DNA from: a phage
Strand: one strand, 5' to 3'
DNA: 64,000 bases
Assembly (NCBI GenBank): GCA_024683775.1
Contig: GCA_024683775.1_4106.1
Shown here: positions 80 to 17,403 of the stretch, piece by piece
Layout of the letters: the number at the start of each line of letters is the position of its first letter
How positions within the stretch are numbered: position 1 is the first letter of the stretch
Translations under genes and position numbers: made by a program
Notes under the pieces: model-generated
Seen by the model: only the letters and a program-made list of their open reading frames with translations
Told to the model about the DNA's origin: nothing
Databases searched by the model: none

Positions 80-107
80 TTGTAAACTATGTTTAAAGGC
101 GTATAAT
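80..107 (+). promoter_or_regulatory. sigma70-like promoter (TTGTAA-16-TATAAT)
   Basis: -35/-10 hexamers read directly; first of two tandem promoters upstream of CDS 258. Confidence 0.6.
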
Positions 108-197
108 GTTTTACATCAGGACGGGGAACGAAATAAGTAACTTCCCGTTAAGTAGCCCAGGAGTAAGGCACACGAAAAACTCCCCTGATAAAATAGT

Positions 198-225
198 TTG
201 ACAATAGAAAGTAAAAGCGTATAAT
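198..225 (+). promoter_or_regulatory. sigma70-like promoter (TTGACA-16-TATAAT)
   Basis: Consensus -35 and -10 hexamers; about 30 nt upstream of CDS 258. Confidence 0.65.
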
Positions 226-257
226 ACTTACATCAACTACTGAATGAGGGTTACAAA

Positions 258-869
258 ATGAAAACTATCACTACTACTACTTTTGTTATGGCTTTTTCTG
301 AACTGAACGCAGAACAAAAAACGGCGGCTATCGAACTGGTTCGGGATCGTGAGCGTTCATGTGAGGATAATTTCTTTGCTGAGGGCGTTATCGAGTACTA
401 TAAAGAAACAGTACTACCAGAATACGGCATAGATGAAGCTGAATTGCAATACAGTGGTTTTTGGTCGCAAGGTGACGGTGCATCAATCAGTACTGACCAC
501 GTTGACGCAGTGAAGTTTTTACGCAAGGTAAGAGCATTAACTAAGTATCGCTCAATCCGTCACTTGCTGAATGAAGATGATTTGGCGATGAGTGTAGAAC
601 GTTCACACTCTCGCTACGCACACGAAAACACGGTAAGCGGGTACATTGAATCGGCTTACACTGATTTAACCGCAAAACAAGAAACGTTAGTTAATGAGCT
701 TGAGGAACTACTCACTGAAACTATTCGTGAATTGTCCCGCAAGTTGTACCGTGATTTAGAGAATGCATATGAGGATCAATTCACTACTGAAAACATTACG
801 GCACTGATTGAGGGTAACGAATATCAATTCAATGTTATTGATGGCGTAGTGGAATCAATCGAATATTAA
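258..869 (+). CDS. hypothetical protein (203 aa)
   Basis: Long ORF; tandem promoters and structured leader upstream; SD-like GAGGG before ATG. Confidence 0.75.
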   Translation: MKTITTTTFVMAFSELNAEQKTAAIELVRDRERSCEDNFFAEGVIEYYKETVLPEYGIDEAELQYSGFWSQGDGASISTDHVDAVKFLRKVRALTKYRSIRHLLNEDDLAMSVERSHSRYAHENTVSGYIESAYTDLTAKQETLVNELEELLTETIRELSRKLYRDLENAYEDQFTTENITALIEGNEYQFNVIDGVVESIEY

Positions 870-881
870 TTTAAAAAGTAC

Positions 882-909
882 TTGCAAACTAAGTTTAAAA
901 GCGTATAAT
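882..909 (+). promoter_or_regulatory. sigma70-like promoter (TTGCAA-16-TATAAT)
   Basis: Hexamers read directly; followed by leader hairpin GGCGGGGAATGGTTCCCCGC and RBS. Confidence 0.6.
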
Positions 910-959
910 ACTTTATATCGAGGCGGGGAATGGTTCCCCGCTCAAACGAGGATTTAAAA

Positions 960-1199
960 ATGGCTAGTACTAAAACTTACAACGGACACAAAAACAAAAC
1001 TCATTGGAATGTAAGCCTTTGGATTAATAACGGTGAGTCATTGTATCGGCTTGCACAAAGTTGCATCGCACAAAGTAGAACTAAAGATATTGCTGCGGAA
1101 TGTATGTACCGCAGATTAAAAGCCAACGGTACTACTACAACGCCGGACGGCTTTAAGTATAGCACTACTGCGATCCGTGCTGCAATGGTTGGAATGTAA
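960..1199 (+). CDS. hypothetical protein (79 aa)
   Basis: ORF; promoter, leader hairpin and SD upstream; start trimmed from track ORF 930 to ATG after SD. Confidence 0.7.
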   Translation: MASTKTYNGHKNKTHWNVSLWINNGESLYRLAQSCIAQSRTKDIAAECMYRRLKANGTTTTPDGFKYSTTAIRAAMVGM

Positions 1200-1256
1200 T
1201 ATTCAGTACTGAGATAATGGCGGGTAATAGTTCCCGCCTTTACTGAGGGTTATCTA

Positions 1257-1517
1257 ATGAGTAAAGTAATTAGCTATACAGCACTAAGCAAGACATTATC
1301 TATTAGCCAGTGCACCGATGGTTATTGGCTATTTGATGAAACGCGTGGCATGAATTTAGCCATGCGTGCAAAAACTGCTGAGGCGGCGTATCTTGAAGCA
1401 TTGGAATACTACCAGGAACGTTTAAAGGAAGTAGAAGAAGATTATAAAAGCCTCAAAGCGAAAGTAGATCATTTCGTCGGTCAATTCATCGAGGAAGACG
1501 ACGACAAACAATATTGA
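1257..1517 (+). CDS. hypothetical protein (86 aa)
   Basis: ORF; leader hairpin GGCGGGTAATAGTTCCCGCC and SD GAGGG upstream. Confidence 0.65.
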   Translation: MSKVISYTALSKTLSISQCTDGYWLFDETRGMNLAMRAKTAEAAYLEALEYYQERLKEVEEDYKSLKAKVDHFVGQFIEEDDDKQY

Positions 1518-1525
1518 AAAAGTAC

Positions 1526-1553
1526 TTGCAATTAGTTTTCAGTACTGTATAAT
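1526..1553 (+). promoter_or_regulatory. sigma70-like promoter (TTGCAA-16-TATAAT)
   Basis: Hexamers read directly; followed by leader hairpin and RBS. Confidence 0.6.
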
Positions 1554-1603
1554 GGTTTACATCAAAGGGAGAAATGGTTCTCCCTGGTAATGAGGAAAAT
1601 AAA

Positions 1604-1825
1604 ATGGCTAATATCACTACTCTTTCCCAACTGGAAGCACTGGTTAAATCTATGCGGGAACATGCCGACAAAATCGGCGTACAAGATCCAGCCGTTTGCT
1701 TCTGCGACGAATTGAATGATGATACCCTGGTAATAGCAGAAGTCCAGGACGTTTCTAACTATTCCTCGCGTTACACTGGCGGCGTAGCAAATAAAGGCGA
1801 CTTCTGTTTATACCTTACAAAATAA
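1604..1825 (+). CDS. hypothetical protein (73 aa)
   Basis: ORF; promoter, hairpin, SD AATGAGGAAA upstream; trimmed from track ORF 1574. Confidence 0.7.
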   Translation: MANITTLSQLEALVKSMREHADKIGVQDPAVCFCDELNDDTLVIAEVQDVSNYSSRYTGGVANKGDFCLYLTK

Positions 1826-1993
1826 CAACGCGGGGAGATAATAACTCCCCGTTACTTTTTCAGTACTGAATCATTTAATAGACGGATCTCGGCACCCGGT
1901 GGGTTAGTGACTGTTTCGTCTTGATGTAGTAATTATGCCAGTACTGGATGCACTTGTCAACAACTATTTTTCAAATACTTTTTATTAAAATAC

Positions 1994-2021
1994 TTGCAAT
2001 TAGTTTTTAAACGCGTATAAT
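1994..2021 (+). promoter_or_regulatory. sigma70-like promoter (TTGCAA-16-TATAAT)
   Basis: Hexamers read directly; followed by hairpin GGGGGAGCGGTTCCCC. Confidence 0.6.
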
Positions 2022-2068
2022 GTTTTGCATAGGGGGAGCGGTTCCCCTGGTAACTAAGGAATAATAAA

Positions 2069-2305
2069 ATGCTTGAACAAATCAAATCAACGTCTGCGAA
2101 TGTAACGGGAACGGTAGTACACTTTACTAGTGATGAATCGCGGGGTGTACCCTATTGTGCTGTACATGTAAACACTGAGGGTAACTACTGGTTTACGGTT
2201 TACGGATCATATTCATTTGGACGACCAGGGCATCAAAAAATTCTGGATAAAGTACAGCCAACGGGTAAAAATATCACTGCTGAAATGTTTTATAAAAAAT
2301 CATAA
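2069..2305 (+). CDS. hypothetical protein (78 aa)
   Basis: ORF; promoter, leader hairpin and SD AAGGAA upstream. Confidence 0.7.
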   Translation: MLEQIKSTSANVTGTVVHFTSDESRGVPYCAVHVNTEGNYWFTVYGSYSFGRPGHQKILDKVQPTGKNITAEMFYKKS

Positions 2306-2389
2306 AGTACTTGATAATAGTTTTTAGTACTGTATAATATTTTACATCGCAAGGGGGAGCGGTTCCCCCTGGTAACTAAGGATAATCAA

Positions 2390-2689
2390 ATGAAAATTAC
2401 AATCATCGCCCTGGCTTTATCTGTTTCCTCTTTCGCTGTTAATGCGTCATTAGATGTAAGTAGTGAAAAATTCATTCAGTGCACTGTTGCAATGACCGAT
2501 GAAAGTACTGGCGAGATTGTATTAAAGGATCTGGAGATTCAGCCGGAAGCATTTAAAAACGGCCCGTTCCATGAAGAAGACGAAAACGGTAGCACGACAA
2601 TTTATTATGATGCCAGTACTAAACGCGGTTCGGTCACTGTAATGGATACCGAGAAAGTAACTCATACCGGCGTTATTAATTGCCGTTGA
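2390..2689 (+). CDS. small secreted or periplasmic protein (99 aa, N-terminal signal-peptide-like segment)
   Basis: ORF; N-terminus MKITIIALALSVSSFAVNA is hydrophobic with an AxA-like end; promoter, hairpin, SD upstream. Confidence 0.65.
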   Translation: MKITIIALALSVSSFAVNASLDVSSEKFIQCTVAMTDESTGEIVLKDLEIQPEAFKNGPFHEEDENGSTTIYYDASTKRGSVTVMDTEKVTHTGVINCR

Positions 2690-2710
2690 TAGATACTACG
2701 GGGTAACATC

Positions 2711-2941
2711 ATGACTAAGCGAATTGTTTTACTTAACGAAAGCAGTACTACACAACTACTTAACGCCGTGCATTATGATATTGAAACGAGCGTTAATCTT
2801 ATCAGTACTGTCGTACTGTTGGACACTGGAAAGGTCGCCAATGATAAAGCGATTGCAGGTATACTAACGGATCTTGAGCCTGGTAGCAGTGCACCAATAA
2901 CGTTAAATGGTAAAGTGTTTAATATTTTACTCACTGATTAA
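2711..2941 (+). CDS. hypothetical protein (76 aa)
   Basis: ORF; SD-like GGGG before ATG; intrinsic terminator immediately downstream. Confidence 0.6.
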   Translation: MTKRIVLLNESSTTQLLNAVHYDIETSVNLISTVVLLDTGKVANDKAIAGILTDLEPGSSAPITLNGKVFNILLTD

Positions 2942-2947
2942 GTACAT

Positions 2948-2970
2948 AGCCCACCTGGTGGGCTTTTTTG
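2948..2970 (+). terminator. rho-independent terminator
   Basis: GC-rich hairpin AGCCCACC/GGTGGGCT followed by a T-run. Confidence 0.7.
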
Positions 2971-3174
2971 TTTTTGTAGTATCGTAGTACTGAGATACTT
3001 TGAAAATAGTTTTAAGAAAGTAGTTGACATTACCGCAGAAAAGCGTAGAATGTATTACATCAAGACGGGGAGCACTAAGTAGACCGCCAGTAAGTCGAAC
3101 GAAAAACTGGACACGTCGAGAAAACTTTGATACACTAATAAACGTAAACTAAACTTTAATTGAGGATTTATAAA

Positions 3175-3657
3175 ATGGCTAATGTAAAATCATTCATCAA
3201 AGCACTGGTAGCAAATGAAACTAACGTCGCGGCTGAGATCCTGGCTGAACTGGATAACGATACCATGAAAGCGGTACGCAATAATTTTAACATCGCGTAC
3301 AGTACTGCGAAAGAACTACAAGCAAATAAAGCGGCAGAAATTGAAGCGGCAAAGGCGGCCCGTGAAGCAGAACTACAAGCAACAATCGAAAGTATTCAGG
3401 CGGCAGTAGTTGGATTGGATCTGGAAGTAGTTACAGAGATGGCACAAAAAGCCCTGGCGGTTAAGTATGGGGAAGACAAGCCAGAAGTAAAAGCCAAAAA
3501 ATGGATTCAGGAACGCGTAGCGGTAGTACTGGACAACGGGGAAGAATATCTGATTCCGGTGCGTGGTAACTGCATTGCGGTAGTACTGGATGCGATTAAC
3601 TCCAGTGGTATGACTCGCGAGGAATGGATCAAAGCTCATCGCAAAGTTGAAGCATAA
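3175..3657 (+). CDS. hypothetical protein (160 aa, Ala/Glu-rich helical N-terminal half)
   Basis: ORF; SD TGAGGA upstream of ATG; trimmed from track ORF 3160. Confidence 0.7.
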   Translation: MANVKSFIKALVANETNVAAEILAELDNDTMKAVRNNFNIAYSTAKELQANKAAEIEAAKAAREAELQATIESIQAAVVGLDLEVVTEMAQKALAVKYGEDKPEVKAKKWIQERVAVVLDNGEEYLIPVRGNCIAVVLDAINSSGMTREEWIKAHRKVEA

Positions 3658-3678
3658 CAATTAAAGTACTGAATCACT

Positions 3679-3706
3679 AGCCCACTGTATAAGTGGGCTT
3701 TTTTGT
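3679..3706 (+). terminator. rho-independent terminator
   Basis: Hairpin AGCCCACT-GTATAA-GTGGGCT followed by a T-run. Confidence 0.75.
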
Positions 3707-3785
3707 GTTTATCGTTTACCATGCCACCAGCACCGCCTAGAAACGATTCTAACGCATTAAACTGATTATCTGATGCATTGCCCTA

Positions 3786-3793
3786 GCTGGTGG
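3786..3793 (+). other. Chi octamer GCTGGTGG
   Basis: Exact match read in sequence; paired with an inverted copy at 3724-3731. Confidence 0.8.
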
Positions 3794-3941
3794 CGTTAAG
3801 GCTGTAAGAACGCGATTGAGAGCGTTTAAAGTATTTTGCAAAAAGTAATAAAAAGTACTTGCACGATTAAGAGATTAGCGTATAATGTTTTACATCGAGA
3901 GGGGGAAACGGTTCTCCTTCCAAATCAAAGGAATTAAAACA

Positions 3942-4169
3942 ATGGCTATCGTAATCACTCGCGTAACTGGTACTACTGGCAATTCTTCTACTGTTGCTGT
4001 AATTACTAATAAGAAAGGTGCGGAATTGCATTTTGCAATGGATAAATGGGCCGTTAATGAGTTCGGTCAGTGGGCAAGTGTAGCATACATTGAAACCTAT
4101 CAAGTGCCGTCGATTAGTTTAACTGATTTGGGCGTTGAGCGTATCCTTTGCCTGGATGAATTAAATTAA
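3942..4169 (+). CDS. hypothetical protein (75 aa)
   Basis: ORF; promoter, hairpin GGGGGAAACGGTTCTCC and SD upstream; track start 3885 lies in the -10 box. Confidence 0.7.
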   Translation: MAIVITRVTGTTGNSSTVAVITNKKGAELHFAMDKWAVNEFGQWASVAYIETYQVPSISLTDLGVERILCLDELN

Positions 4170-4255
4170 AAAAGTACTTGCAAAGTAAATCAGATAAAGT
4201 ATAATACATTACATCAAGGGGAGAAATGGTTCTCCCTGATAATGAGGAAACTAAT

Positions 4256-4399
4256 ATGAAAACTTGTCAATGTGGTAAAAAATCTATTACTGGTTTAAAG
4301 CGGGGCGTTGCACTTTGCCAGTACCATTATAATTTACAAGTATGGGGTAAAGAATGGGCCGACCAGGTGGAAGCAGCAAAGAAAGCAAAAAGTAAGTAA
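4256..4399 (+). CDS. hypothetical small Cys-containing protein (47 aa)
   Basis: Short ORF not in track; promoter, hairpin GGGGAGAAATGGTTCTCCCC and SD AATGAGGAAA upstream. Confidence 0.5.
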   Translation: MKTCQCGKKSITGLKRGVALCQYHYNLQVWGKEWADQVEAAKKAKSK

Positions 4400-4417
4400 A
4401 ATATTATCACAGTACTA

Positions 4418-4446
4418 TTGACATAGTTTGATAGTACTGGCATAAT
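4418..4446 (+). promoter_or_regulatory. sigma70-like promoter (TTGACA-17-CATAAT)
   Basis: Hexamers read directly; the same cassette recurs near 7260, 7520 and 15450. Confidence 0.6.
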
Positions 4447-4489
4447 AGATTTTATCAAGACGACACATATTAATTTAAGGAATACTAAA

Positions 4490-4813
4490 ATGGCTAAAAC
4501 TATCATTAACACCGTTTCCCTGGCTGCAATCCGTGCAATCAATGTTGACGGTAAACGTTGGACTGATTCATATGGCAATACTTATCATTCTTGTCATGTA
4601 AGCGTTGAACTGGATAACGGTTTGAATGATCTGGCGGTTGAATCATTTACTTATGGCTATGAAGATGCATATCAACAAACGGCGTTAGATCTCTTAAAGG
4701 AATCAGTAGACGGGCTTAATACTGATGACACCTCCCTTACTCGTTTGTGCAATGATCTTAATATCCCGTTGCATTGTACTGTACAGAATGTTAAACGCAA
4801 AAAAGATCTTTAA
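4490..4813 (+). CDS. hypothetical protein (107 aa), paralog of CDS 10978
   Basis: ORF; shares RWTDSxGNTYHSC and FTYGY motifs and C-terminal KRKKD with CDS 10978. Confidence 0.7.
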   Translation: MAKTIINTVSLAAIRAINVDGKRWTDSYGNTYHSCHVSVELDNGLNDLAVESFTYGYEDAYQQTALDLLKESVDGLNTDDTSLTRLCNDLNIPLHCTVQNVKRKKDL

Positions 4814-4893
4814 TTAGCTTTACTTTATGCAGATACTTTGATATAGTGTCTGCATAGGGGAAAGAAATTAAATTAACTTAAGAGGAACGTATA

Positions 4894-5163
4894 ATGAAAA
4901 ATATCAGTACTTTAATCGACGCAGGTACACATGTTCGGCGGTCTATGGTTGCAACCAGTACTACAAAACAAGTACCAAGCGGTTATCTTGTATTTGTGCA
5001 CGATGGTAAACTCCTGGAACGTTCAATCAATTTTGATGTTAAAAACAATTGCCGTTTTATTATCTTTAAGCGTGAGCAATATAAAATTGATTTACCAGCA
5101 AAGCCCATAAGCGGGGCGTACAACGTGCAATCATTGTTTGAACGTCAACCATACACCTATTAA
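4894..5163 (+). CDS. hypothetical protein (89 aa)
   Basis: ORF; SD AAGAGGAA upstream. Confidence 0.65.
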   Translation: MKNISTLIDAGTHVRRSMVATSTTKQVPSGYLVFVHDGKLLERSINFDVKNNCRFIIFKREQYKIDLPAKPISGAYNVQSLFERQPYTY

Positions 5164-5214
5164 TCAAAACATCGTTAGCGGTCGATTTAGGCCGCTTATA
5201 TTGGGGATTATACC

Positions 5215-5487
5215 ATGAACGTTAATCAAGTACTGAATGAGATCGAAAGCATCATTAAACCGATGAAGCGTACTGATGCTATGTTAACACCGGAAGAATG
5301 CCGCCTTTATGAGCGTTACAGCGTCGAACAAGTCCAGGCGATGGCTATGGCTACCCCAGCCGTTAAACCGCCTGAGAATGCGTTACAGGACGTTACAGGG
5401 GATTATATCATCAATCCAGTACTAGGGAAGATGGCTGCAATCACCGAAGATCAACAAGACTACTTAAGCCAGTACTTAAAAGGTTAA
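5215..5487 (+). CDS. hypothetical protein (90 aa)
   Basis: ORF; SD-like GGGG before ATG. Confidence 0.6.
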   Translation: MNVNQVLNEIESIIKPMKRTDAMLTPEECRLYERYSVEQVQAMAMATPAVKPPENALQDVTGDYIINPVLGKMAAITEDQQDYLSQYLKG

Positions 5488-5492
5488 TTAAT

Positions 5493-5702
5493 ATGCTTAC
5501 TGTACAGGATAAGATCGACATCTTAAAGGTTAATATGTATGTGATTGATGCAGTACCTGGTAAAGTATTTGCATACGATGACAGTACTGTAAGCGATTTC
5601 TACTATAGCCAGGCCGTGGGGGATCTTTCTGTACAGTCGGTTATTGAAAACGTAGTTAATGCAGCGTATGAGCATTTACTTTCAAATAGTACTTGCAATT
5701 AG
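5493..5702 (+). CDS. hypothetical protein (69 aa)
   Basis: ORF 5 nt after previous stop; likely co-translated. Confidence 0.55.
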   Translation: MLTVQDKIDILKVNMYVIDAVPGKVFAYDDSTVSDFYYSQAVGDLSVQSVIENVVNAAYEHLLSNSTCN

Positions 5703-5771
5703 TTTTTAAACGCGTATAATGTTTTACATGAAGGGGAGAAATGATTCTCCCCACTAATTAAGGAATATGAA

Positions 5772-5918
5772 ATGAAAGCATCAAAAAAGAGTACTAACAA
5801 GAAAGCACGTTCAACCTTAGATGGGGTATTCCCTTTACGTTTCGTTGATGAAGTAGTTTCCTACCCGCCGGGCCTTACTCCTGAGATGGTAGAAAGTTTG
5901 CGTAAATCTAAAAAATAG
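5772..5918 (+). CDS. hypothetical small basic protein (48 aa)
   Basis: Short ORF not in track; promoter, hairpin and SD AAGGAA upstream. Confidence 0.5.
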   Translation: MKASKKSTNKKARSTLDGVFPLRFVDEVVSYPPGLTPEMVESLRKSKK

Positions 5919-5999
5919 TACTTGCAATTAGTTTTTAGTACTGTATAATGTTTTACATGAAGGGGAGAAATGATTCTCCCCAATAACAGGAGAAACAAA

Positions 6000-6152
6000 A
6001 TGAAACAATACAACGCTCGGTTTGATGTTACTATCGGTAACGGCAAAGGTCAATTCTCTTTCAGTACTCGCAAAAGTTATACAGAAAACTTCCTGCGTAA
6101 TTGTGCACTGACCGCCGCTCAAATTAAACATTATTTTCAGGCTAAAAAATGA
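6000..6152 (+). CDS. hypothetical protein (50 aa)
   Basis: ORF; promoter, hairpin, SD AGGAGA upstream; trimmed from track ORF 5970. Confidence 0.6.
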   Translation: MKQYNARFDVTIGNGKGQFSFSTRKSYTENFLRNCALTAAQIKHYFQAKK

Positions 6153-6238
6153 GATCATTAGCTTATTACAGTTCGGCCCTGGTCGGTGCATTGATCGCGG
6201 CGTTGTTAGTAACCTATCTATTCTTTATGGTGATTTAA
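6149..6238 (+). CDS. possible hydrophobic peptide (29 aa)
   Basis: ATGA overlap with previous stop; single hydrophobic helix; very short, so speculative. Confidence 0.3.
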   Translation: MRSLAYYSSALVGALIAALLVTYLFFMVI

Positions 6239-6382
6239 ATGAATCCAACAGGTTTAAACTATAAAAGTTGTTCGGCGTTTACGAAAGCAAATAAAGCGAA
6301 TGCACGTAAAGCGAAAGTACAGGAATACATCAAGCAAGGCATGACGCGAAAGGCGGCGATTCTAAAAGCTAAAAATAAATGA
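6239..6382 (+). CDS. hypothetical small basic protein (47 aa)
   Basis: Short ORF directly after previous stop; Lys/Ala-rich; terminator downstream. Confidence 0.4.
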   Translation: MNPTGLNYKSCSAFTKANKANARKAKVQEYIKQGMTRKAAILKAKNK

Positions 6383-6384
6383 AA

Positions 6385-6478
6385 AAAGTGGTTGACTCCG
6401 GTCAGCCATTTTGCTATTATATATTCATTGAGAGATAGCTCACTAGCCCACAGGGTGCATAAGTGTATCTATTATATG
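6385..6478. repeat. composite intergenic repeat, copy 1
   Basis: Terminator hairpin (6389-6414) overlapping TTGACT-17-TATTAT, then conserved box CCCACAGGGTGCATAAGTGTATCT; similar copies at about 10025, 13310, 16082. Confidence 0.7.
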
Positions 6479-10112: not shown

Positions 10113-10117
10113 TGTTT

Positions 10118-10977: not shown

Positions 10978-11301
10978 ATGGCTATGATCCTTACCCAGAA
11001 AGTAGAACTGAAAATTGTAACCTCCTTTGACATTAAAGTTAATCGGTGGACTGATAGCCACGGCAATACTTACCACTCCTGCTACGTGTCCGCATTGATT
11101 GGTGATCGCTGGGAAGACCTGGGACACGAAACCTTTACATACGGTTACGGCACACAAGGTGAGTACACGGGTTTAGAAATCATTAAGGAAACTGTAATAG
11201 GTTTCAACCCGAAAGAGAAAGTACTACACAGAATTGAGAAAGAGATCAACAAAGAAATTACAGTTCGCTACTACGATGTAAAACGTAAGAAAGACATGTA
11301 A
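10978..11301 (+). CDS. hypothetical protein (107 aa), paralog of CDS 4490
   Basis: ORF; upstream cassette almost identical to that of CDS 10708; shares motifs with CDS 4490. Confidence 0.7.
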   Translation: MAMILTQKVELKIVTSFDIKVNRWTDSHGNTYHSCYVSALIGDRWEDLGHETFTYGYGTQGEYTGLEIIKETVIGFNPKEKVLHRIEKEINKEITVRYYDVKRKKDM

Positions 11302-11400
11302 TAGAATCCATTTAAAGTACTATTTGACATTGCCCAGATAGTACTTTATAATAGACTCTAACTTGTAGTACTAATTAACTTAACTAATAGGATGTACACC

Positions 11401-11796
11401 ATGATTACTAAATTCTTCGCTACCCGTGAACAAGCTCGCATCGTTGCCCGTGAGGAAGGTGAAACATTTAAAGACATGGGTAAAGATTCTCCTACTGGTA
11501 AACGCTGGGCGGTACAGTTCAAAGAGATCTCTGATATTGTGAATTCACCTGAGCCTGTACTTACAGCAGCAGAACTAAAGCAAGCTCAAGAACTGGCTGA
11601 AGTACTGAACGCTCAAGATGACTTCTTGAAAGGTTCTGATATTGAAGTTACAGTTAACGCAAATGCATGGACTCACGCGGATCACCTGGCAAACCTTAAG
11701 CGTCCAAGTGAACTGATTCGCAACCAGAAAGAGATCCGACACGACCGTAAGGGTAATCGTGTAACAGTATACAGTAAACGCCGCCAGGTTATCTAA
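11401..11796 (+). CDS. hypothetical protein (131 aa)
   Basis: ORF; promoter TTGACA...TATAAT upstream; start chosen at second ATG after AGGA. Confidence 0.65.
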   Translation: MITKFFATREQARIVAREEGETFKDMGKDSPTGKRWAVQFKEISDIVNSPEPVLTAAELKQAQELAEVLNAQDDFLKGSDIEVTVNANAWTHADHLANLKRPSELIRNQKEIRHDRKGNRVTVYSKRRQVI

Positions 11797-11818
11797 TAAC
11801 TTGCAGTACTAACAACAC

Positions 11819-11843
11819 GGCGGGATCAGTTCCCGCCTTTTTT
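11819..11843 (+). terminator. rho-independent terminator
   Basis: Hairpin GGCGGGA-TCAG-TTCCCGCC followed by TTTTTT. Confidence 0.75.
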
Positions 11844-11857
11844 ATAGGACAAACAAA

Positions 11858-12112
11858 ATGATTAAGGTTCAACTATATAAAGATAACATCTTACGGGTAC
11901 ACTATAAAGCACCTCAGAGAATCATCACAAAGGCCGTACAGCTTGCTAATGAGTTTATTAATGGTAACCTATTACCTAGGAAGTTAAGCAACGGGAAACT
12001 GCGTGTAATCGACGTGGACACTAACAACAGGATAGTAATCGAGAACACAGGAAAGATAAACCTTTATGAGCATCAACAATACAATAAGAAAATAAAACTA
12101 ATATCACGTTGA
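11858..12112 (+). CDS. hypothetical protein (84 aa)
   Basis: ORF; SD-like sequence upstream. Confidence 0.6.
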   Translation: MIKVQLYKDNILRVHYKAPQRIITKAVQLANEFINGNLLPRKLSNGKLRVIDVDTNNRIVIENTGKINLYEHQQYNKKIKLISR

Positions 12113-12165
12113 CAGTACTCAATTGTTTTAGTACTATGTACACATACCAACACGGGAGAAACAAA

Positions 12166-12384
12166 ATGAAATTATCTAAAATCGAAAAGAAAACTATTGA
12201 TGAAGCAGTTAAGCACGGTTATACCTTTCGTAATGATTCACATTTTACCAATTTTCAACAAGGGTATCGTACTATTAAAAAACTAATTGACAAAGGTTTA
12301 TTAGTTGAAGTCAATAACGGTAACGGTATCGAGTATCAACCAACACAAGACGCATTTTATTTTAAGAAATATAATATTATCTAA
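12166..12384 (+). CDS. hypothetical protein (72 aa)
   Basis: ORF; promoter and SD GGGAGAAA upstream; trimmed from track ORF 12109. Confidence 0.65.
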   Translation: MKLSKIEKKTIDEAVKHGYTFRNDSHFTNFQQGYRTIKKLIDKGLLVEVNNGNGIEYQPTQDAFYFKKYNII

Positions 12385-12442
12385 TTGACAGTACTCAATT
12401 GTTTTAGTATTATGTACACATACCAACACGGGGGGAAACAAA

Positions 12443-12685
12443 ATGATTACTTTAGAAAAACGTATCAAAGAAACTACATCGCTGGTGGAACTGTTAACAG
12501 TACTCAAATGTAAAACAACACCATTCAGCACGCCGGACTTTATTAATATGGTTGATGTTAATGGTCGCTATCGTATCACGGTCGAACAAGGAGCGGCGAA
12601 AGTATTCAGTACTAAAAACACTAAGGAAGTGATCCACGCCGTTAATGTTAAAAAAGTAGTTGCCATTGATAGTAAAGTACTGTAA
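12443..12685 (+). CDS. hypothetical protein (80 aa)
   Basis: ORF; upstream about 60 bp is a near-identical copy of the region upstream of CDS 12166. Confidence 0.65.
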   Translation: MITLEKRIKETTSLVELLTVLKCKTTPFSTPDFINMVDVNGRYRITVEQGAAKVFSTKNTKEVIHAVNVKKVVAIDSKVL

Positions 12686-12716
12686 TATAGTTTCATTAAC
12701 TCAAGGAGAACATGCA

Positions 12717-13301
12717 ATGCGTAAATATACTAAATTCATCCGTACACTGTCAGAAATGGAAACCAACAAAGAGATCCTTTCAGCTTGTCGGTTAGCTGGC
12801 CTGGAGATCATCGGTGCTGGTTCTTCCCGTATAGTATTCGCTTTAAATGATCGGTTAGTGATTAAGGTCGCGAATTGTGATGCGGGTGTCGAACAAAATG
12901 AAACTGAATGTAAGGTATGGAATTTTTTAGACTATGACCGCCCTCAGTTGAAACAGTACTTTGCAAAGGTGCATATGCATTTATGCGATCCTGATAATAT
13001 GTTTATCGTTATGGATCGGTTGAGTACTGCAAGCAAAGGCAGTGTGAAGCACGTAAACGCGTGCAATGAATTAAAGTACAATATTAAACGTAATGCAATC
13101 GAACGCCAGCACCGCTTTGCTGATGCACTACAACACGTTGATGATACATTATCAACACTAACGATAAGAGATATCAGAAAACAGAATATCGGCCAGGATC
13201 GTAATGGACTTATTAAAGTACTTGATTACGGTTTAACCAGCAATATCTGGAATCAGTACTATAAAAAGCGTGATGTGGCAGCAAGTAAGGTAACACGATA
13301 A
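12717..13301 (+). CDS. protein-kinase-like protein (194 aa)
   Basis: Gly-rich loop IGAGSSRIVF, VIKVA lysine, catalytic-loop-like RDIRKQNIG and DFG-like VLDYG in the expected order; SD AAGGAGAA upstream; trimmed from TTG-start track ORF 12660. Confidence 0.6.
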   Translation: MRKYTKFIRTLSEMETNKEILSACRLAGLEIIGAGSSRIVFALNDRLVIKVANCDAGVEQNETECKVWNFLDYDRPQLKQYFAKVHMHLCDPDNMFIVMDRLSTASKGSVKHVNACNELKYNIKRNAIERQHRFADALQHVDDTLSTLTIRDIRKQNIGQDRNGLIKVLDYGLTSNIWNQYYKKRDVAASKVTR

Positions 13302-13309
13302 AAAAGATT

Positions 13310-13400
13310 AAAAAAGGGATTGACTCCGGTCAGTCCCTTTGCTATTATATATCCATTGAGAGATAACTCACTGACCCATAGGGTGCGGAAGTGTATCTAT
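13310..13400. repeat. composite intergenic repeat, copy 3
   Basis: Terminator hairpin overlapping TTGACT-17-TATTAT, then box CCCATAGGGTGCGGAAGTGTATCT. Confidence 0.7.
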
Positions 13401-13525
13401 TATATAAGTATTCAGTACTGAAAACTATTTGATAAAAAGTACTTGCAAACTATCTCAATGAGCGTATAATGTTTTATATCGAGAGGGGGAAATGGTTCTC
13501 CCTGGTACTAAAAGGAATCAAGACG

Positions 13526-13747
13526 ATGACTACTATGACCTGCGTTCACGCTTCAAATCTTCTGAATGATGCAGCATTTAAAGCAGGTGAAGAATATCAA
13601 TGCTATCGGGATGAAAATAAAAAAGTTTTCGTCGTTGATGCTAACGGTTTCCATATTGAATTGCAATCCGGCTTCACTGGTTTAAATGGTAAATCAGTAT
13701 GGGGCGTTAATGATGATAATGGTCTTTATCACTTTATCCGTAATTAA
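13526..13747 (+). CDS. hypothetical protein (73 aa)
   Basis: ORF; promoter, hairpin and SD AAAGGAA upstream; trimmed from track ORF 13469. Confidence 0.65.
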   Translation: MTTMTCVHASNLLNDAAFKAGEEYQCYRDENKKVFVVDANGFHIELQSGFTGLNGKSVWGVNDDNGLYHFIRN

Positions 13748-13831
13748 GTATTTGACAAAGTATATCAGTACTGTATAATAGTTTACATCAAGGGGAGAAT
13801 AGTTCTCCCCGATACTAAAAGGAATAAAATC

Positions 13832-14239
13832 ATGACTACTACCAATCAAGCTCGGAACATCACCAACGATAAAAATCATGCTGCAATGGTCGCTGGATAC
13901 ATTGAAGCTATGCAATTCAGTACTGTATACAATGAGAACGGCGATTACCTGGAAGATTATGAATTATCAGAGCAAGCCCATCAAGCGGCAGTGATTGCAT
14001 GTTCACGTTTCCTTGCTGTACATGGTGAAGATATGGAAACAGTACAAAAACACCATAATCCTGATTATACTTATAGTCATGCAGGTCATGATCTCTTTCT
14101 TACTCGCGAAGGTCACGGCACTGGTTTTTGGGATCGTGGTTTAGGTCACTATGGCGATGTATTCACGAAGTACTGCGAAGAAATCAACGTTTGCGATCCC
14201 TATGTAGGCGATGATAACTTAATCTATATGGGCGAATAA
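13832..14239 (+). CDS. hypothetical protein (135 aa)
   Basis: ORF; promoter TTGACA...TATAAT, hairpin GGGGAGAATAGTTCTCCCC, SD upstream. Confidence 0.7.
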   Translation: MTTTNQARNITNDKNHAAMVAGYIEAMQFSTVYNENGDYLEDYELSEQAHQAAVIACSRFLAVHGEDMETVQKHHNPDYTYSHAGHDLFLTREGHGTGFWDRGLGHYGDVFTKYCEEINVCDPYVGDDNLIYMGE

Positions 14240-14328
14240 AAGTATTTGACAAAGTATATCAGTACTGTATAATAGTTTACATCAAGGGGAGAATAGTTCT
14301 CCCCACACCAATAAAAGGAAACAAAATT

Positions 14329-14601
14329 ATGTCCAGCTACTCCGCTACTATGATCATTAAAGATATGAACGGTAATCCTACTTCTGCTGGTGGATCATTT
14401 GGAAATATTAACTTAGATGGGCGGTTATCCATGCAATCAGCCATCGATGCAGCGAAAGAAGTTTTTAAGAATGAATGTACTGTTAGTAAGCTGGATTATA
14501 TGGGTTTCGCTATCGAGAAAACTACTCGTTTTGTGAACTACAAAAATCCACTGATGATTGATACTAACCTGAAAGCTAACGAAGTGGGGTACTTATTATG
14601 A
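14329..14601 (+). CDS. hypothetical protein (90 aa)
   Basis: ORF; upstream cassette duplicates the one upstream of CDS 13832; contains a Chi octamer. Confidence 0.7.
   Translation: MSSYSATMIIKDMNGNPTSAGGSFGNINLDGRLSMQSAIDAAKEVFKNECTVSKLDYMGFAIEKTTRFVNYKNPLMIDTNLKANEVGYLL
14385..14392 (+). other. Chi octamer GCTGGTGG
   Basis: Exact match read in sequence. Confidence 0.8.
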
Positions 14602-14789
14602 CAGTAGAAGAAGTAAAAAAAGTACTGGCAGTACTACGATATCATAATCATTGCAAGGTGAAGAATGATCCTGATTATCTTGATTCATCCCTGGAGGAAG
14701 ACACCTTGAACGCTATAAGCCATATGCAGACATTAGCAAAGCGTATGACTGAAAAGAACATGCCGGACTATATCGGAAATAAAATTTAA
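14598..14789 (+). CDS. hypothetical protein (63 aa)
   Basis: ORF; ATGA overlap with previous stop. Confidence 0.6.
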   Translation: MTVEEVKKVLAVLRYHNHCKVKNDPDYLDSSLEEDTLNAISHMQTLAKRMTEKNMPDYIGNKI

Positions 14790-14876
14790 AAAGTACTTGC
14801 ATTGTAGTTAGATTAACGTATAATGTTTTATATCGAGAGGGGGAAATGGTTTCCCCTCAAGTCCAGGAGATACACC

Positions 14877-15140
14877 ATGAACACTATCGAAATCACTATC
14901 AATGCACACGTATACGACAACGTAGTACTGCAAACTACTATGACCGCCAATGATACCAGTACTTTGCGGAATACTGTTATTAGTGCCGTATGTGCCGCTA
15001 TCGGTGATGTCGCCCTGGAAAATGCAAAACACGTAAACGATGGTTTCACTATGTGCAAACGTGATAACGCAAAACATATCATCGTGGAAGGTTACGGCGG
15101 TGTAGAATTTAATGTTTATATGAAAAAAGTACTTGCATAA
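14877..15140 (+). CDS. hypothetical protein (87 aa)
   Basis: ORF; promoter, hairpin, SD CAGGAGA upstream; trimmed from track ORF 14823. Confidence 0.7.
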   Translation: MNTIEITINAHVYDNVVLQTTMTANDTSTLRNTVISAVCAAIGDVALENAKHVNDGFTMCKRDNAKHIIVEGYGGVEFNVYMKKVLA

Positions 15141-15207
15141 TAACTAAAACAAAGTATAATGTTTTGCATAGGGGGAGATATCCTCCCCCACTAAAAGGAG
15201 TAATAAA

Positions 15208-15432
15208 ATGGCTAACTTTGATGAACTGATGCGGGAAGTAGCTAACCTGGCAGAAGAGAAGAAATCATTCGATTCTATCTATAACACCGCTCACCGTGAT
15301 TCAGTACTGGCATGTAACCAGGATCAAAAAGATGAACTAATCGCCACCTATCATGAAGCATGGAAGTACTACCGACAATGGGAGAAAGAAGAAAGTGAGT
15401 CTACCATTGACGGCCTCAATAATCTAATCTAA
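15208..15432 (+). CDS. hypothetical protein (74 aa)
   Basis: ORF; promoter, hairpin GGGGGAGATATCCTCCCCC and SD upstream. Confidence 0.7.
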   Translation: MANFDELMREVANLAEEKKSFDSIYNTAHRDSVLACNQDQKDELIATYHEAWKYYRQWEKEESESTIDGLNNLI

Positions 15433-15508
15433 AAGTTTTATTTCAGTACTATTGACATAGCTTGATAGTACTGATGTAATAACTTTACTAACTACAAGGG
15501 GAAACATA

Positions 15509-15766
15509 ATGGATCAGTTCACACAATATCGGGTAAATCCTCAAGCTATGGCCTACGTAGAAGACCATAAAACGTTACCAGTACTGCAACCAGTTAAAGG
15601 CCATATCTATCGTGCAATGTCGTGGTGTACGGCCCAGGATGGCTATAAAACCGTAGCCGTGGGTATGTATTGCGGTGATGGTGAATGGTTTGATCCAAAT
15701 AATCCGGTATCCATTGACAGTACTGAAAAAATGAAATGGGCCGACTACATCGAAGATATTTCATAA
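15509..15766 (+). CDS. hypothetical protein (85 aa)
   Basis: ORF; type-III promoter and SD upstream. Confidence 0.65.
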   Translation: MDQFTQYRVNPQAMAYVEDHKTLPVLQPVKGHIYRAMSWCTAQDGYKTVAVGMYCGDGEWFDPNNPVSIDSTEKMKWADYIEDIS

Positions 15767-15856
15767 AAACTATTTGACAGTACTAACCAGTAATGTATAA
15801 TGTTTTACATAGAGCGGGGGAATAGTTCTCCCGCCAATAGTTTGGAGTAAAACATT

Positions 15857-16057
15857 ATGTCTATCGCTATCGCCCTGGTTGAAGTACTGAAAGAAGCTAA
15901 AGCCAACCAGATCGACGTAAAGATCCAGGAACTACAAAACGGCTTAATCGGCTGTACTTGTACCGCTGGTGGAGCGGCAGACTATCGAGAACACGAATCA
16001 CTCGAATCACTGGTTCGGTATCTTACCATGATCGTTGATGATTGGAGAATCATCTAA
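15857..16057 (+). CDS. hypothetical protein (66 aa)
   Basis: ORF; promoter, hairpin and SD upstream; contains a Chi octamer. Confidence 0.65.
   Translation: MSIAIALVEVLKEAKANQIDVKIQELQNGLIGCTCTAGGAADYREHESLESLVRYLTMIVDDWRII
15965..15972 (+). other. Chi octamer GCTGGTGG
   Basis: Exact match read in sequence. Confidence 0.8.
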
Positions 16058-16081
16058 CAAAAAAGAATAAAAAAAGGGATT

Positions 16082-16154
16082 GACTCCGGTCAGTCCTTTT
16101 GCTATTATATACGCATAGACAAAAACTAGCCCACAGGGTGCATAGGTGTATCCA
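16082..16154. repeat. composite intergenic repeat, copy 4
   Basis: Terminator hairpin overlapping TTGACT-17-TATTAT, then box CCCACAGGGTGCATAGGTGTATCC. Confidence 0.7.
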
Positions 16155-16187
16155 AAATATATAGTTAATAACGGTGAGTAACTATCT

Positions 16188-16195
16188 GCTGGTGG
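16188..16195 (+). other. Chi octamer GCTGGTGG
   Basis: Exact match just downstream of repeat copy 4. Confidence 0.8.
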
Positions 16196-16302
16196 AACTA
16201 AAACTATTAATAAAAAAGTATTGACAAAGTATATCAGTACTGCAATAATGTATCTCGTAGGGCGGCAATGGTGCGACGGCCCACAAAGTTAGGAGATTCA
16301 AA

Positions 16303-16638
16303 ATGACTACTTCAATCGCTATCGTTAAAGCTTTCATCCGTACTAATGTTTCCTCTGTATTCATCGACGGCCTCGACCGTAACGTAGAATACTCAATCAT
16401 TATCGCACAAACGGCAAACGGTTCTCGGTACATCCTGAATGATAGTGAAGCAAATCACTACTACTTCACTAAAGCCACTGGCTTTAAACGCATCGATGCT
16501 GATGTAGTATACGCTAAGATGAATAAGCTGGTAGACAAGATTAACGCGAAAGGTACTATCGATTTACAGTACTGGACCGAAACCGATCCAGAGTATGGAT
16601 CTCACCGCTACCTGAATCCAGGTATTAAAATGAAATAG
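16303..16638 (+). CDS. hypothetical protein (111 aa)
   Basis: ORF; promoter TTGACA...(C)AATAAT and SD TAGGAGA upstream. Confidence 0.7.
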   Translation: MTTSIAIVKAFIRTNVSSVFIDGLDRNVEYSIIIAQTANGSRYILNDSEANHYYFTKATGFKRIDADVVYAKMNKLVDKINAKGTIDLQYWTETDPEYGSHRYLNPGIKMK

Positions 16639-16723
16639 TACTTGCATAGTACTTAGATTCATGTATAATGTTTTACATAGAGAGGGGGAAATGGTTCTCC
16701 CTCCTAAATTAAGGAGTTTTATC

Positions 16724-17125
16724 ATGACCTTCTCAATCACTTCCTTCGCTGACGTTTTAGTACTGGCCCGGACTTTTGGTAAAGCTGGCCTTGAACACGC
16801 TGTAAGTAATGGTCATATGCACCCTGAATATTGCCGCATCATTGGAAGCTGCAAACGTTGGGCAGTGTCCCGTAATATTGAGATTGAAAACTTCAATGAC
16901 GGCAACAACGAATATACAGTTGATGCAGTATTCGAAGCCGTTGATCTCGGCGGTATCTATAACACTAACCTGAATGATGTGCGTATCGTTCGCACGGGGT
17001 TCGGTGCTTATGATGTATCTATCCGTGAAGCTATGGACAAGGGATACATTAGCAAGGACCAGTTAGCTTACATCATGCAGCAAACTAAGGAGCGTAATGA
17101 AGCACGTACTATCTTAGGGCTGTAA
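16724..17125 (+). CDS. hypothetical protein (133 aa)
   Basis: ORF; promoter, hairpin and SD TAAGGAG upstream; trimmed from track ORF 16661. Confidence 0.7.
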   Translation: MTFSITSFADVLVLARTFGKAGLEHAVSNGHMHPEYCRIIGSCKRWAVSRNIEIENFNDGNNEYTVDAVFEAVDLGGIYNTNLNDVRIVRTGFGAYDVSIREAMDKGYISKDQLAYIMQQTKERNEARTILGL

Positions 17126-17193
17126 GCAATACACATCACCAAACATCATAGGCCGCTCTCTAGCGGCCTTAACTATATCAGGAGTACATACAC

Positions 17194-17403
17194 ATGATCT
17201 ATACAGTATATAGCGTTCTAGGCACTATTGCAGGCGTACATGATAACGTCGATGGTGCTATGCGTACAGTACTGCAACAGGTTCCACTAAAGCCTAAGAC
17301 CATTAAGCAGATGACAGCACGACTAACCAGGGCGACGGCTGGCGTGGAAGTATGGCAGGACTATGGGGATACACAGATAATCGTAAGCGTAACGAAGGAT
17401 TAA
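17194..17403 (+). CDS. hypothetical protein (69 aa)
   Basis: ORF; hairpin AGGCCGCT-CTCT-AGCGGCCT then SD CAGGAG upstream. Confidence 0.65.
   Translation: MIYTVYSVLGTIAGVHDNVDGAMRTVLQQVPLKPKTIKQMTARLTRATAGVEVWQDYGDTQIIVSVTKD

Follow-up and report, generated by a model that had tools for sequence, protein, structure and literature searches.

Promoter early stem-loop-like cassettes with a leader hairpin in the terminal repeat of a jumbo coliphage, and their probable part in gene shuffling

Promoter early stem-loop (PeSL) cassettes are known in the T4-type phages RB49/phi1, PST and nt-1 (PMC2839356; PMC4122927). A PeSL consists of a strong sigma-70-like promoter with an AT-rich upstream part, a poly-G/poly-C stem-loop, which may take any of five positions, and the Shine-Dalgarno (SD) sequence and ATG of an ORFan (PMC2839356). 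In RB49, PeSL recombination produces indels and mini-circles, and the stem-loop, which cut expression of a downstream lacZ about as much as rrnB T1, was reported to be a terminator; the same authors speculated that the GGGG...CCCC motif is a possible target of a recombination protein (PMC2839356). Here, an array of similar cassettes is described in a 64,000-nucleotide stretch of phage DNA (GenBank assembly GCA_024683775.1, contig GCA_024683775.1_4106.1), which is called the window below. All the PeSL features that can be tested by sequence were found in the window, and on these grounds the array is classed as PeSL-type, in a group of phages new for such systems and with its stem-loop in the leader. 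The interpretation favoured here, with good though not full confidence, is that the terminal repeat of this phage is an array of early genes standing behind portable promoter-hairpin expression cassettes of ~90 bp, and that the array is shuffled by recombination.

By megablast, window 1-17,200 matches Escherichia phage vB_Ec-M-J (95% identity, full length), and dozens of other Asteriusvirus genomes gave patchy matches. These matches place the window in Asteriusvirus, the 121Q/PBECO4-like group of Rak2-like jumbo coliphages (myoviruses). The vB_Ec-M-J record has direct terminal repeats annotated at 1-21,525, and window 1-17,200 corresponds to its positions 2,444-21,170. The terminal repeat of fEgEco12 is 20,993 bp long, as confirmed by PhageTerm and restriction digests (PMC13070987). 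When mapped onto the window, the repeat ends of these two phages put the window start ~2.4 kb (vB_Ec-M-J) or 3.3 kb (fEgEco12) inside the repeat and the repeat end at ~17,550. Because both map near that position, the gene-dense zone that an earlier reading of the sequence alone (the sequence-only reading) had set apart as its zone 1 is, by homology, the direct terminal repeat of the phage. The zone holds 48 genes of 29-203 amino acids; ~35 small genes have a host-type promoter each, making the array mostly monocistronic, and past the repeat the gene layout is one of tightly overlapping open reading frames (ORFs) without individual promoters. In PA5oct, a distant relative with a 39 kb terminal repeat, the early genes that are highly transcribed are those of the repeat, and rifampicin stops the production of phage, which depends on host RNA polymerase (PMC7318152). 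By analogy with this one phage, the zone genes would be early genes that use the host RNA polymerase.

The 22 hairpin cassettes all lie on the + strand and are ~90 bases long, each consisting of a near-consensus sigma-70 promoter, a GC-rich hairpin, an SD sequence and the ATG of the following gene (Table 1). The upstream part is an A-rich stretch ending in AGTAC, and ttaaaaAGTAC, ttgaaaaAGTAC or a similar sequence stands before the -35 box in nearly all of them. The promoter has TTGCAA, TTGACA or a similar -35 box, a spacer of 16-17 nt that often contains AGTACTG, and TATAAT, and its -10 hexamer matches the consensus at six or five of six positions in all 22 cassettes. Between the -10 box and the hairpin lie 9-15 nt (mostly 12-13 nt), a stretch of the type GTTTTACATCAA. 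The hairpin stem of 7-9 bp has the form GGGG(A)GAA...TTC(T)CCCC, for example GGGGAGAA-ATGG-TTCTCCCC, and on its 3' side an A-rich stretch with stop codons leads to the SD and then the ATG. When the 22 leaders were folded, the minimum free energy (MFE) was -10.6 to -16.0 kcal/mol, with z scores of -0.7 to -3.7 against dinucleotide shuffles, and the SD was unpaired in nearly all of the MFE structures.

The promoter, leader hairpin, SD and ATG modules that the sequence-only reading had located are present far above chance. Promoter-like sites matching at least 10 of 12 positions in 1-17,500 number 34 on the + strand versus 4 on the - strand, and first-order Markov simulations gave 5.1 ± 2.3 such sites for the + strand. 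A consensus scan of 1-18,000 at the same threshold gave ~40 sites, nearly all on the + strand. Perfect GC-rich hairpins (at least 6 bp, at least 4 of them G-C) occur 29 times in the 64 kb window, and 23 of these begin in the first 16 kb. Ten of the cassettes were used to build a covariance model, which found each of the 21 named cassettes of TATAAT type at E <= 0.026. The remaining one, c9074, has TATAGT as its -10 box and was not itself among the model matches; the orthologous positions in two relatives matched weakly (E 0.5). All of the matches at E below ~0.3 were on the + strand, the off-strand matches being confined to a few weak ones (E ~0.3-1), and the same model found no cassette in window 17,200-64,000. 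The earlier count of about 25 cassettes is reduced to 22 with a hairpin and one degenerate copy.

The cassettes are 75-95% identical, lie in direct orientation a few hundred bases apart, and provide a promoter every 200-400 bp. The sequence-only reading had described identical cassettes in front of unrelated genes. The cargo genes are indeed mutually unrelated, the sole paralogous pair in the zone being g4490/g10978 (39%), but the three cassette pairs named as identical agree at 92.3%, 88.9% and 94.8% of positions, and the third of them (12109-12165 and 12385-12442) has the promoter and the SD but no hairpin. An Rfam scan of 1-20,000 at E <= 1 returned three sub-threshold chance matches, none of them on a cassette, and no tRNA genes were found. 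In the literature on Asteriusvirus, Rak2-like, rV5-like and phi92-like phages, neither an earlier description of these cassettes nor a start-site map was found.

Table 1. Positions of cassettes, terminators and other elements of the terminal-repeat zone in the window.
Feature	Position	Strand	Description
direct terminal repeat (~21 kb), part	1..17550	+	repeat ends of vB_Ec-M-J and fEgEco12 mapped onto window
two-promoter leader	80..257	+	promoter 80-107; structured non-coding ~85 nt 108-195; promoter 198-225; gene 258-869; second copy 10167-10343
c904	872..962	+	A-rich/AGTAC, TTGCAA-16-TATAAT; hairpin 923-941; SD; ATG 960
c1548	1516..1606	+	hairpin 1566-1585; ATG 1604; promoter half matches chimeric A7_1 cassette
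terminator, intrinsic type with T-run	1831-1851	+	
c2016	1984..2071	+	hairpin 2031-2048, one G.T; ATG 2069; after terminator 1831-1851
c2333	2301..2392	+	hairpin 2352-2370; ATG 2390
terminator, intrinsic type with T-run	2948-2964	+	stem AGCCCAC...GTGGGCT
terminator, intrinsic type with T-run	3679-3699	+	stem AGCCCAC...GTGGGCT
c3881	3849..3944	+	hairpin 3899-3920, two G.T; ATG 3942; after terminator 3679-3699; 242-nt insertion within it in fEgEco12
c4200	4168..4258	+	hairpin 4219-4236; ATG 4256; E9.1 replacement from ATG+2
class-B cassette without hairpin	4400..4492	+	TTGACA-17-CATAAT with TG; sister copies 7242-7327, 7505-7597, ~15440-15511
c5715	5683..5774	+	hairpin 5733-5752; ATG 5772; gene 5772-5918 missing in 121Q, 72-nt junction overlap
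c5944	5912..6002	+	hairpin 5962-5981; ATG 6000
c6537	6505..6596	+	hairpin 6556-6574; ATG 6594
c6972	6940..7031	+	hairpin 6990-7008; ATG 7029
c9074	9042..9128	+	-10 TATAGT; loop ACATC type; hairpin 9090-9108; ATG 9126
c9345	9313..9402	+	hairpin 9363-9382; ATG 9400; extra 349-372 nt gene at 9314 in four relatives
c9642	9610..9701	+	hairpin 9661-9677; ATG 9699
c10645	10613..10710	+	hairpin 10665-10684; ATG 10708; gene 10708-10890 missing in 121Q, 103-nt overlap
c10916	10884..10980	+	92.3% identical to c10645; hairpin 10936-10954; ATG 10978
terminator, intrinsic type with T-run	11819-11837	+	stem GGCGGGA...TCCCGCC
class-C cassette without hairpin	12109..12168	+	94.8% identical copy 12385-12445; gene 12166-12384 between, missing in E9.1 and SP27 (85-nt overlap)
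c13465	13433..13528	+	hairpin 13484-13503, one G.T; ATG 13526
c13774	13742..13834	+	hairpin 13792-13810; ATG 13832; gene 13832-14239 missing in BF17, E9.1, 121Q, SP27, 89-100 nt overlap
c14268	14236..14331	+	88.9% identical to c13774; hairpin 14286-14304; ATG 14329
c14819	14787..14879	+	hairpin 14837-14858; ATG 14877; gene 14877-15140 missing in 121Q, 56-nt overlap
c15155	15123..15210	+	hairpin 15171-15189, loop ATATC; ATG 15208
c15796	15764..15859	+	hairpin 15814-15834, one G.T; ATG 15857; cassette and gene missing in BF17
degenerate cassette	16212..16305	+	TTGACA-17-AATAAT; weak hairpin GGGCGGCAATGGTGC..., z 0.09; ATG 16303; 121Q: 248-nt insertion between duplicated copies, 68-nt overlap
c16664	16632..16726	+	hairpin 16682-16703, one G.T; ATG 16724; last cassette before repeat end

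Window 1-18,000 was compared with vB_Ec-M-J, fEgEco12, BF17, E9.1, 121Q and SP27 by chained BLAST alignments. About 20 distinct differences from the six relatives were found, and they cluster at cassette edges: of the 44 break ends, 11 fall within a gene at a depth of more than 12 nt, versus 63.5% expected (binomial P = 2e-7). For ten events (about eight independent ones after near-duplicates are merged), the flanking alignments overlap at the junction by 55-126 nt, and the difference is exactly one gene plus one cassette between two cassette copies. Extra genes are found between duplicated cassettes at 4371-4464 in vB_Ec-M-J and BF17, where the two copies are of a hairpin-less type (class B, 4400-4492; 94-126 nt overlap), and at 10271-10325 and 16207-16274 in 121Q. 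Replacements start two bases into the start codon at 962 and 4258, and one deletion (8644 to 9065) has both its ends in -35 regions, those of two successive promoters. Cassettes without a hairpin (classes B and C) take part in indels in the same way, so it is the homology of the whole cassette, not the hairpin itself, that matters for recombination. In the control region 30,000-47,200 the alignment pieces were not clearly fewer than in the repeat for distant relatives, and no claim is made that the repeat is especially prone to indels. Synteny breaks at cassette boundaries in relatives, which the sequence-only reading had named as its own test, were therefore found, and its proposal that PeSL-like cassettes are tied to gene shuffling is borne out by the junction homology, and further by a chimeric cassette and by one gene standing behind different cassette types, both described below.

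The cassettes are also found outside the genus. When one 89-nt cassette was used as the query, each Asteriusvirus genome gave 8-26 copies, the members of a second jumbo-phage group (Salmonella, Klebsiella) 5-14, and ~140-150 kb phages from other families one or two; the Asteriusvirus-like genomes with the cassette number ~50. The repeat zone matched 222 phage records, unrelated families included, versus 36 for the equally long control region 30,000-47,200, all of them jumbo relatives. A pattern scan of IMG/VR found five stretches on four contigs (three of ~350-366 kb, including 121Q, and one of 109 kb) and adds little. The 19.7 kb terminal repeat of the Klebsiella phage fENko-Kae01 has 17 window-gene homologues, whose order is largely scrambled, together with promoters of the same style and some leader hairpins. 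In the Vequintavirinae phage A7_1 the same cassette types precede eight homologues, which are differently ordered and 42-91% identical in amino acids. One A7_1 cassette is chimeric, its promoter half matching c1548 and its leader half c3881. The A7_1 homologue of gene 960-1199 (89% nucleotide identity; the match begins at the start codon and ends at the stop codon exactly) stands behind a hairpin-less class-B promoter, whereas the window gene stands behind a hairpin cassette. Justusliebigvirus alia, a phi92-like phage, has seven homologues in yet another order and at least 12 leader hairpins of the same style, such as GGCGGGAAA-TGG-TTTCCCGCC and GGGCGGCA-ATAG-TGCCGCTC. The cassette types and the cargo genes are thus shown by these alignments to be common to unrelated large virulent coliphages.

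The position of the stem-loop differs among these phages. About 20 RB49 cassettes were compared directly by sequence, and their stem-loop lies in the spacer (TTGACAGGGGGTCACCGATCCCCTATAAT) or across the -10 box (GGGAGTAGTAAGATACTCCC) and therefore outside the promoter's own transcript. Several fENko-Kae01 promoters likewise have an inverted repeat across the -10 box, for example GGGAGTATT-ATAT-AATACTCCC; GC-rich repeats of this kind lie at 6291-6312, 8602-8623, 11712-11733, 16842-16865 and 17899-17920 of that phage, and this is the layout of many RB49 PeSLs. Compared with the window, the position of the stem-loop relative to the promoter therefore differs even among lineages that share cargo genes. 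RB49 itself shares one cargo homologue with the zone (34% identity, behind a PeSL), and its leader motif ATCAAGACGAGA recurs in the class-B leaders of the window at 4447 and 8075. It is tentatively suggested, with somewhat less than even confidence, that the cassettes are a common currency for a pool of small early genes in Asteriusvirus, the rV5-like Vequintavirinae and Phapecoctavirus, and the phi92-like Justusliebigvirus. The T4-type Krischvirus (RB49) may also belong to this pool, as the shared leader motif and the single 34% cargo homologue hint. If the suggestion is true, the near-identity of the promoter, hairpin and SD modules could let co-infecting phages of different families trade host-takeover or anti-defence genes singly and ready for expression, with nothing more than ordinary homologous recombination. 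The terminal repeat of the jumbo phages, at ~21 kb, would then be the largest platform for such exchange.

A possible mode of action can be drawn from these features. Host sigma-70 RNA polymerase would initiate at the near-consensus cassette promoter. Start sites usually lie 7 ± 1 nt past the -10 box, and a transcript starting ~7 nt after it would begin ~2-8 nt before the hairpin, which would thus sit at the 5' end of the mRNA. Hairpins are obstacles to RNase E scanning, and here the hairpin would shield the 5' region of the mRNA from 5'-end-dependent or scanning RNase E decay. It would also keep the A-rich ribosome-binding site unstructured whatever gene is attached. A generic 5'-end stabiliser, which the sequence-only reading had also proposed, is the best guess for its molecular role, as far as the layout of the leaders can tell. 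The cassettes act as portable homology because more than 20 similar copies stand in direct orientation a few hundred bases apart; through them, as the relatives show, recombination can delete, duplicate, insert or replace single genes with the expression signals kept intact.

Instead of protecting its own transcript, the hairpin might act on the transcript of the upstream gene, as a terminator, an attenuator or a 3'-end protection that insulates the cassettes from each other, a role that has been suggested for PeSLs, and its position in the leader would then be incidental. This is unlikely but deserves serious attention. The stem-loop of an RB49 PeSL lowered lacZ about like rrnB T1 (PMC2839356), insulation would be useful with promoters so closely spaced, and a function that does not depend on the local start site would fit the variable position of the stem-loop (leader here, spacer or -10 box in RB49 and fENko-Kae01). 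A further hairpin at 1219-1238 begins right after a weak -10 box and could form in read-through RNA only. The sequence after the hairpins does not look like that of a terminator, however. None of the 22 is followed by a T-run, the next 8 nt containing 1-3 T and the flank being A-rich (ACTAA..., GGTAA...), whereas the separate canonical terminators of the zone have 6-7 T and different stems. A terminator consensus scan called no cassette hairpin, and the ARNold-based annotation of phage G17 has four terminators in the homologous 8 kb, none of which is a cassette hairpin. The hairpin is also retained in c2016, c3881, c6537 and c13465, which come directly after terminators; little read-through should reach these cassettes, which favours a role in the cassette's own transcript. 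Judged by their flanks, the cassette hairpins are not terminator-like.

Divergence was measured at orthologous sites against the six Asteriusvirus relatives. It is 2.4% in the -10 hexamer, 4.5% in the -35 hexamer, 4.1-4.8% in the stem arms, 9.8% in the loop, 8.8% from the hairpin to the ATG and 10.9% at codon position 3. At these rates the stem is constrained and the loop is not. The sequence-only reading had regarded the loop as conserved and as a possible site of a shared RNA-binding regulator. The loop is only semi-conserved and is the fastest-evolving part of the cassette among orthologues, and the regulator idea is weakened by a loop divergence close to that of codon position 3 and twice that of the stem. 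That a sequence-specific RNA-binding regulator or nuclease reads the loop is quite improbable, although A-(A)T(G/A)G-T loops recur in Asteriusvirus, rV5-like and phi92-like phages and the 5' arm has a GGAG-like sequence. Within one genome there are at least nine loop sequences in three lengths of 3-5 nt (ATGG, ATGA, TAG, ACGG, TGG, CGG, GCGG(T), ACATC and ATATC), and none of the hairpins has an Rfam match. A lambdoid nut/boxB-type site was not found either, the loop being unconserved, without an Rfam match and without a boxA-like element in the leaders by eye. The 3' arm pairs poorly with the SD (mean -4.3 versus -2.2 kcal/mol for shuffled sequences), and a switch based on it was rejected as a general feature; the sole notable case is c5944 (-8.3 kcal/mol). 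Also rejected was the loop ATG as the start of a leader peptide. Some cassettes have it in the reading frame of the gene (930, 1574, 4226 and 5970), but in others (5742) a stop follows after 6 codons, and GGAG and ATG are too close together; the loop ATG is treated as a by-product of the fixed cassette spacing.

To analyse covariation in the stem, 150 matches (83 distinct sequences) that came from eight related loci and the window were aligned by means of the covariance model; this alignment replaced one made with MAFFT, which had set hairpins with 3-nt and 4-nt loops out of register. Standard pairs fill 98.1% of the 646 cells, and two-sided changes occur in five of eight pairs (82 cells). The covariation score is 0.406, versus 0.188 ± 0.011 for shuffled partners (none of 500 reaches it) and at most 0.136 for slid partners; since the aligned hairpins are related by descent, these counts are not independent events, and the direction of the evidence is consistent. 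The outer pairs vary through G-C, A-U, C-G and U-A, and the inner GGG/CCC core is nearly constant. The cells that are not Watson-Crick are G.T in 33 cases and A.C in nine, with no T.G and no C.A. The two-sided changes, the asymmetry of G.T over A.C and the variable arm distance argue that the arms pair within one strand and do not form an operator. The hairpin is thus a selected single-strand structure, as these substitution patterns suggest, most likely in RNA but possibly in + strand single-stranded DNA.

An operator, namely a double-stranded DNA site for a dimeric phage or host regulator of the early promoters, is therefore very unlikely. The palindrome does lie at about +3 to +25, a common operator position, its core GGGRAA...TTYCCC is well conserved, and a coordinated shut-off of ~20 strong promoters would be useful. 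But half-site reading does not favour outer pairs that change on both sides and remain complementary, and a reader of duplex DNA should dislike G.T and A.C equally. A palindromic operator with fixed half-site spacing was not seen, the arms being 3-5 nt apart, and about a third of the zone promoters have no inverted repeat. It is hardly credible that the hairpin is recognised in single-stranded DNA by a dedicated recombinase with integron-like, site-specific cassette movement: the PeSL authors' speculation on GGGG...CCCC (PMC2839356), the strand-asymmetric tolerance of G.T, which fits single-stranded DNA as well as RNA, and the spread of the cassettes across phage families would agree with it, but the junctions have long homology and no fixed crossover point, as in homologous recombination, the crossovers are scattered over the -10 box (A7_1), the -35 regions (8644/9065 deletion) and the ATG (replacements), hairpin-less classes B and C undergo the same indels, and no integrase-like gene was noticed among the 16 of 48 zone proteins scanned.

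Several points weigh against the favoured interpretation of portable cassettes with a stabilising leader hairpin. The 5' position of the hairpin is predicted by the usual start-site spacing alone. The predicted 5' tail is mostly 4-7 nt long, longer than the 0-4 nt reportedly needed for the classical stem-loop protection of the ompA type. The stem-loops of RB49 and several of those of fENko-Kae01 lie outside the promoter's own transcript, and a function common to all of these phages would have to act on read-through RNA or on DNA. The tolerance of G.T suits + strand single-stranded DNA equally well as RNA, and since the cassettes are all paralogues, common descent rather than selection could account for their constant geometry and G-then-C orientation. 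On the side of shuffling, surviving indels are expected to respect gene boundaries anyway, and the junction overlaps are therefore stronger evidence than the statistic of break ends.

About 12 further promoters of the zone, i.e. about a third, have no hairpin. The class-B promoters among them, TTGACA-17-(TG)CATAAT with an extended -10 box, lie at 4418, 7261, 7523, 8046 and ~15452. The structured ~85-nt non-coding segment of the two-promoter leader has copies at 108-195 and 10195-10280 and a related unit at 3052-3135. In A7_1 (2228-2314) it is 92% identical to window 10193-10278 and 89% identical to 106-193, and is more conserved than most neighbouring genes. Its predicted fold is a three-helix junction, the copies being too alike to reveal covariation, and it is a candidate small RNA or leader element. 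Another repeated non-coding unit occurs on the + strand at 6385-6470, 10030-10115, 13313-13400 and 16073-16150, with variants at 8046-8115 (+), 1960-1885 (-) and 32-1 (-, cut by the window start). It has a terminator-like hairpin that holds a -35 box (AAAGGGATTGAC-TCCG-GTCAGTCCCTTT, then TATTAT) and, ~25 nt downstream, a nearly invariant CTA(A/G)CCCA(C/T)NGGGTGC. A 13-mer of this unit is found five times in fENko-Kae01 and also in an IMG/VR contig, and its hairpins are annotated as ARNold terminators in phage G17. These units may be small RNA genes that also split the repeat into transcription blocks.

The first 17.5 kb contains 116 copies of the palindrome AGTACT, versus 5.6 expected from base composition, and the rest of the window contains 133, in patches. 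The palindrome is dense in 1-17420 and absent from 17420-22929 and 24993-33220. In the cassettes it lies just upstream of the -35 box and in the spacer, many copies are within coding sequence, and it also marks promoters in the terminal repeat of fENko-Kae01; a literature search on AGTACT over-representation found nothing relevant. From 17653 on, tandem ORFs of ~65-90 amino acids with overlapping stop and start codons have no promoters of their own and no AGTACT, and BF17 has a 500-nt insertion exactly at the repeat boundary (window ~17400-17650). In BF17 and SP27 the repeat zone is closer to the window (~91-96% in aligned blocks) than the adjacent non-repeat region (84-88%), which could reflect more frequent exchange or homogenisation of the repeat. 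In vB_Ec-M-J the homologue of gene 258-869 has a 63-nt in-frame tandem duplication at its start (675 nt versus 612 nt; window 241-307 versus vB_Ec-M-J 3854-3983), with no link to a cassette. When the 16 zone proteins were scanned for domains, a GNAT acetyltransferase (gene 8691-9047, E 4e-9, missing in BF17) and a DksA/TraR-type zinc finger (gene 8370-8627, E 3.7e-9) were found above the Pfam cut-offs and one weak protein-kinase-like match (gene 12717-13301, E 0.004) under the cut-off, and the PHROG matches were all of "unknown function". A TraR/DksA-like early protein might bias the host RNA polymerase to promoters with A/T-rich discriminators like these, which is a suggestion of the present authors.

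Mobile regulatory cassettes, so far documented in T4-type phages only, are extended by these results to jumbo phages and to at least two other coliphage families, and they offer a concrete, testable route by which small early genes could move one at a time among related and unrelated phages. Host-takeover and anti-defence functions are usually found among early genes, and the variable cassette-flanked genes 5772-5918, 8691-9047, 10708-10890, 12166-12384, 13832-14239, 14877-15140 and 15857-16057 are candidates for accessory functions. Judging from their sequence, the cassettes would be compact, apparently strong and context-independent expression modules for E. coli. The comparison of leader-placed with promoter-placed stem-loops bears directly on the role of the PeSL stem-loop.

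Like the pre-early region of T5 and the repeat of PA5oct, the locus is a long terminal repeat packed with small genes, here presumably early ones, behind strong promoters for the host RNA polymerase. Stepwise DNA entry is known for T5 only, and the accessible papers on T5 and PA5oct describe no repeated promoter-hairpin cassette. The 5' stabilising stem-loop of the ompA type is similar in that a stable hairpin lies near the predicted 5' end, upstream of an unpaired ribosome-binding site, but the predicted 5' tail of ~2-8 nt is often longer here than the length said to be protective. As with integron attC sites, single genes are exchanged at a repeated hairpin-forming boundary element, an analogy that the PeSL authors also drew; unlike in integrons, no integrase was noticed among the proteins scanned, the boundary element brings its own promoter, and the junctions resemble homologous recombination.

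The closest likeness is to the PeSLs. Both have the same parts (a sigma-70 promoter, an A/T-rich upstream stretch, a stem-loop of a G-run and a C-run, an SD and an ATG), both stand before small genes of unknown function in a plastic region whose gene content varies among close relatives, and in both, cassettes bound the gene-sized indels and replacements, and chimeric cassettes occur at the junctions. The carrier here is a Rak2-like jumbo phage instead of a T4-type phage, and the array fills a direct terminal repeat, whereas the T4-type cassettes lie in internal hyperplastic regions. The stem-loop is always 9-15 nt past the -10 box, in the predicted transcript, and not in the spacer or at the -10 box as in RB49. 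The hairpins here are not terminator-like by sequence, whereas terminator activity and mini-circles have been demonstrated for RB49. The element is therefore PeSL-like and not a new kind; what is new is its setting in the terminal repeat of a jumbo phage, the placement of the stem-loop in the leader and the sharing of cassettes across phage families.

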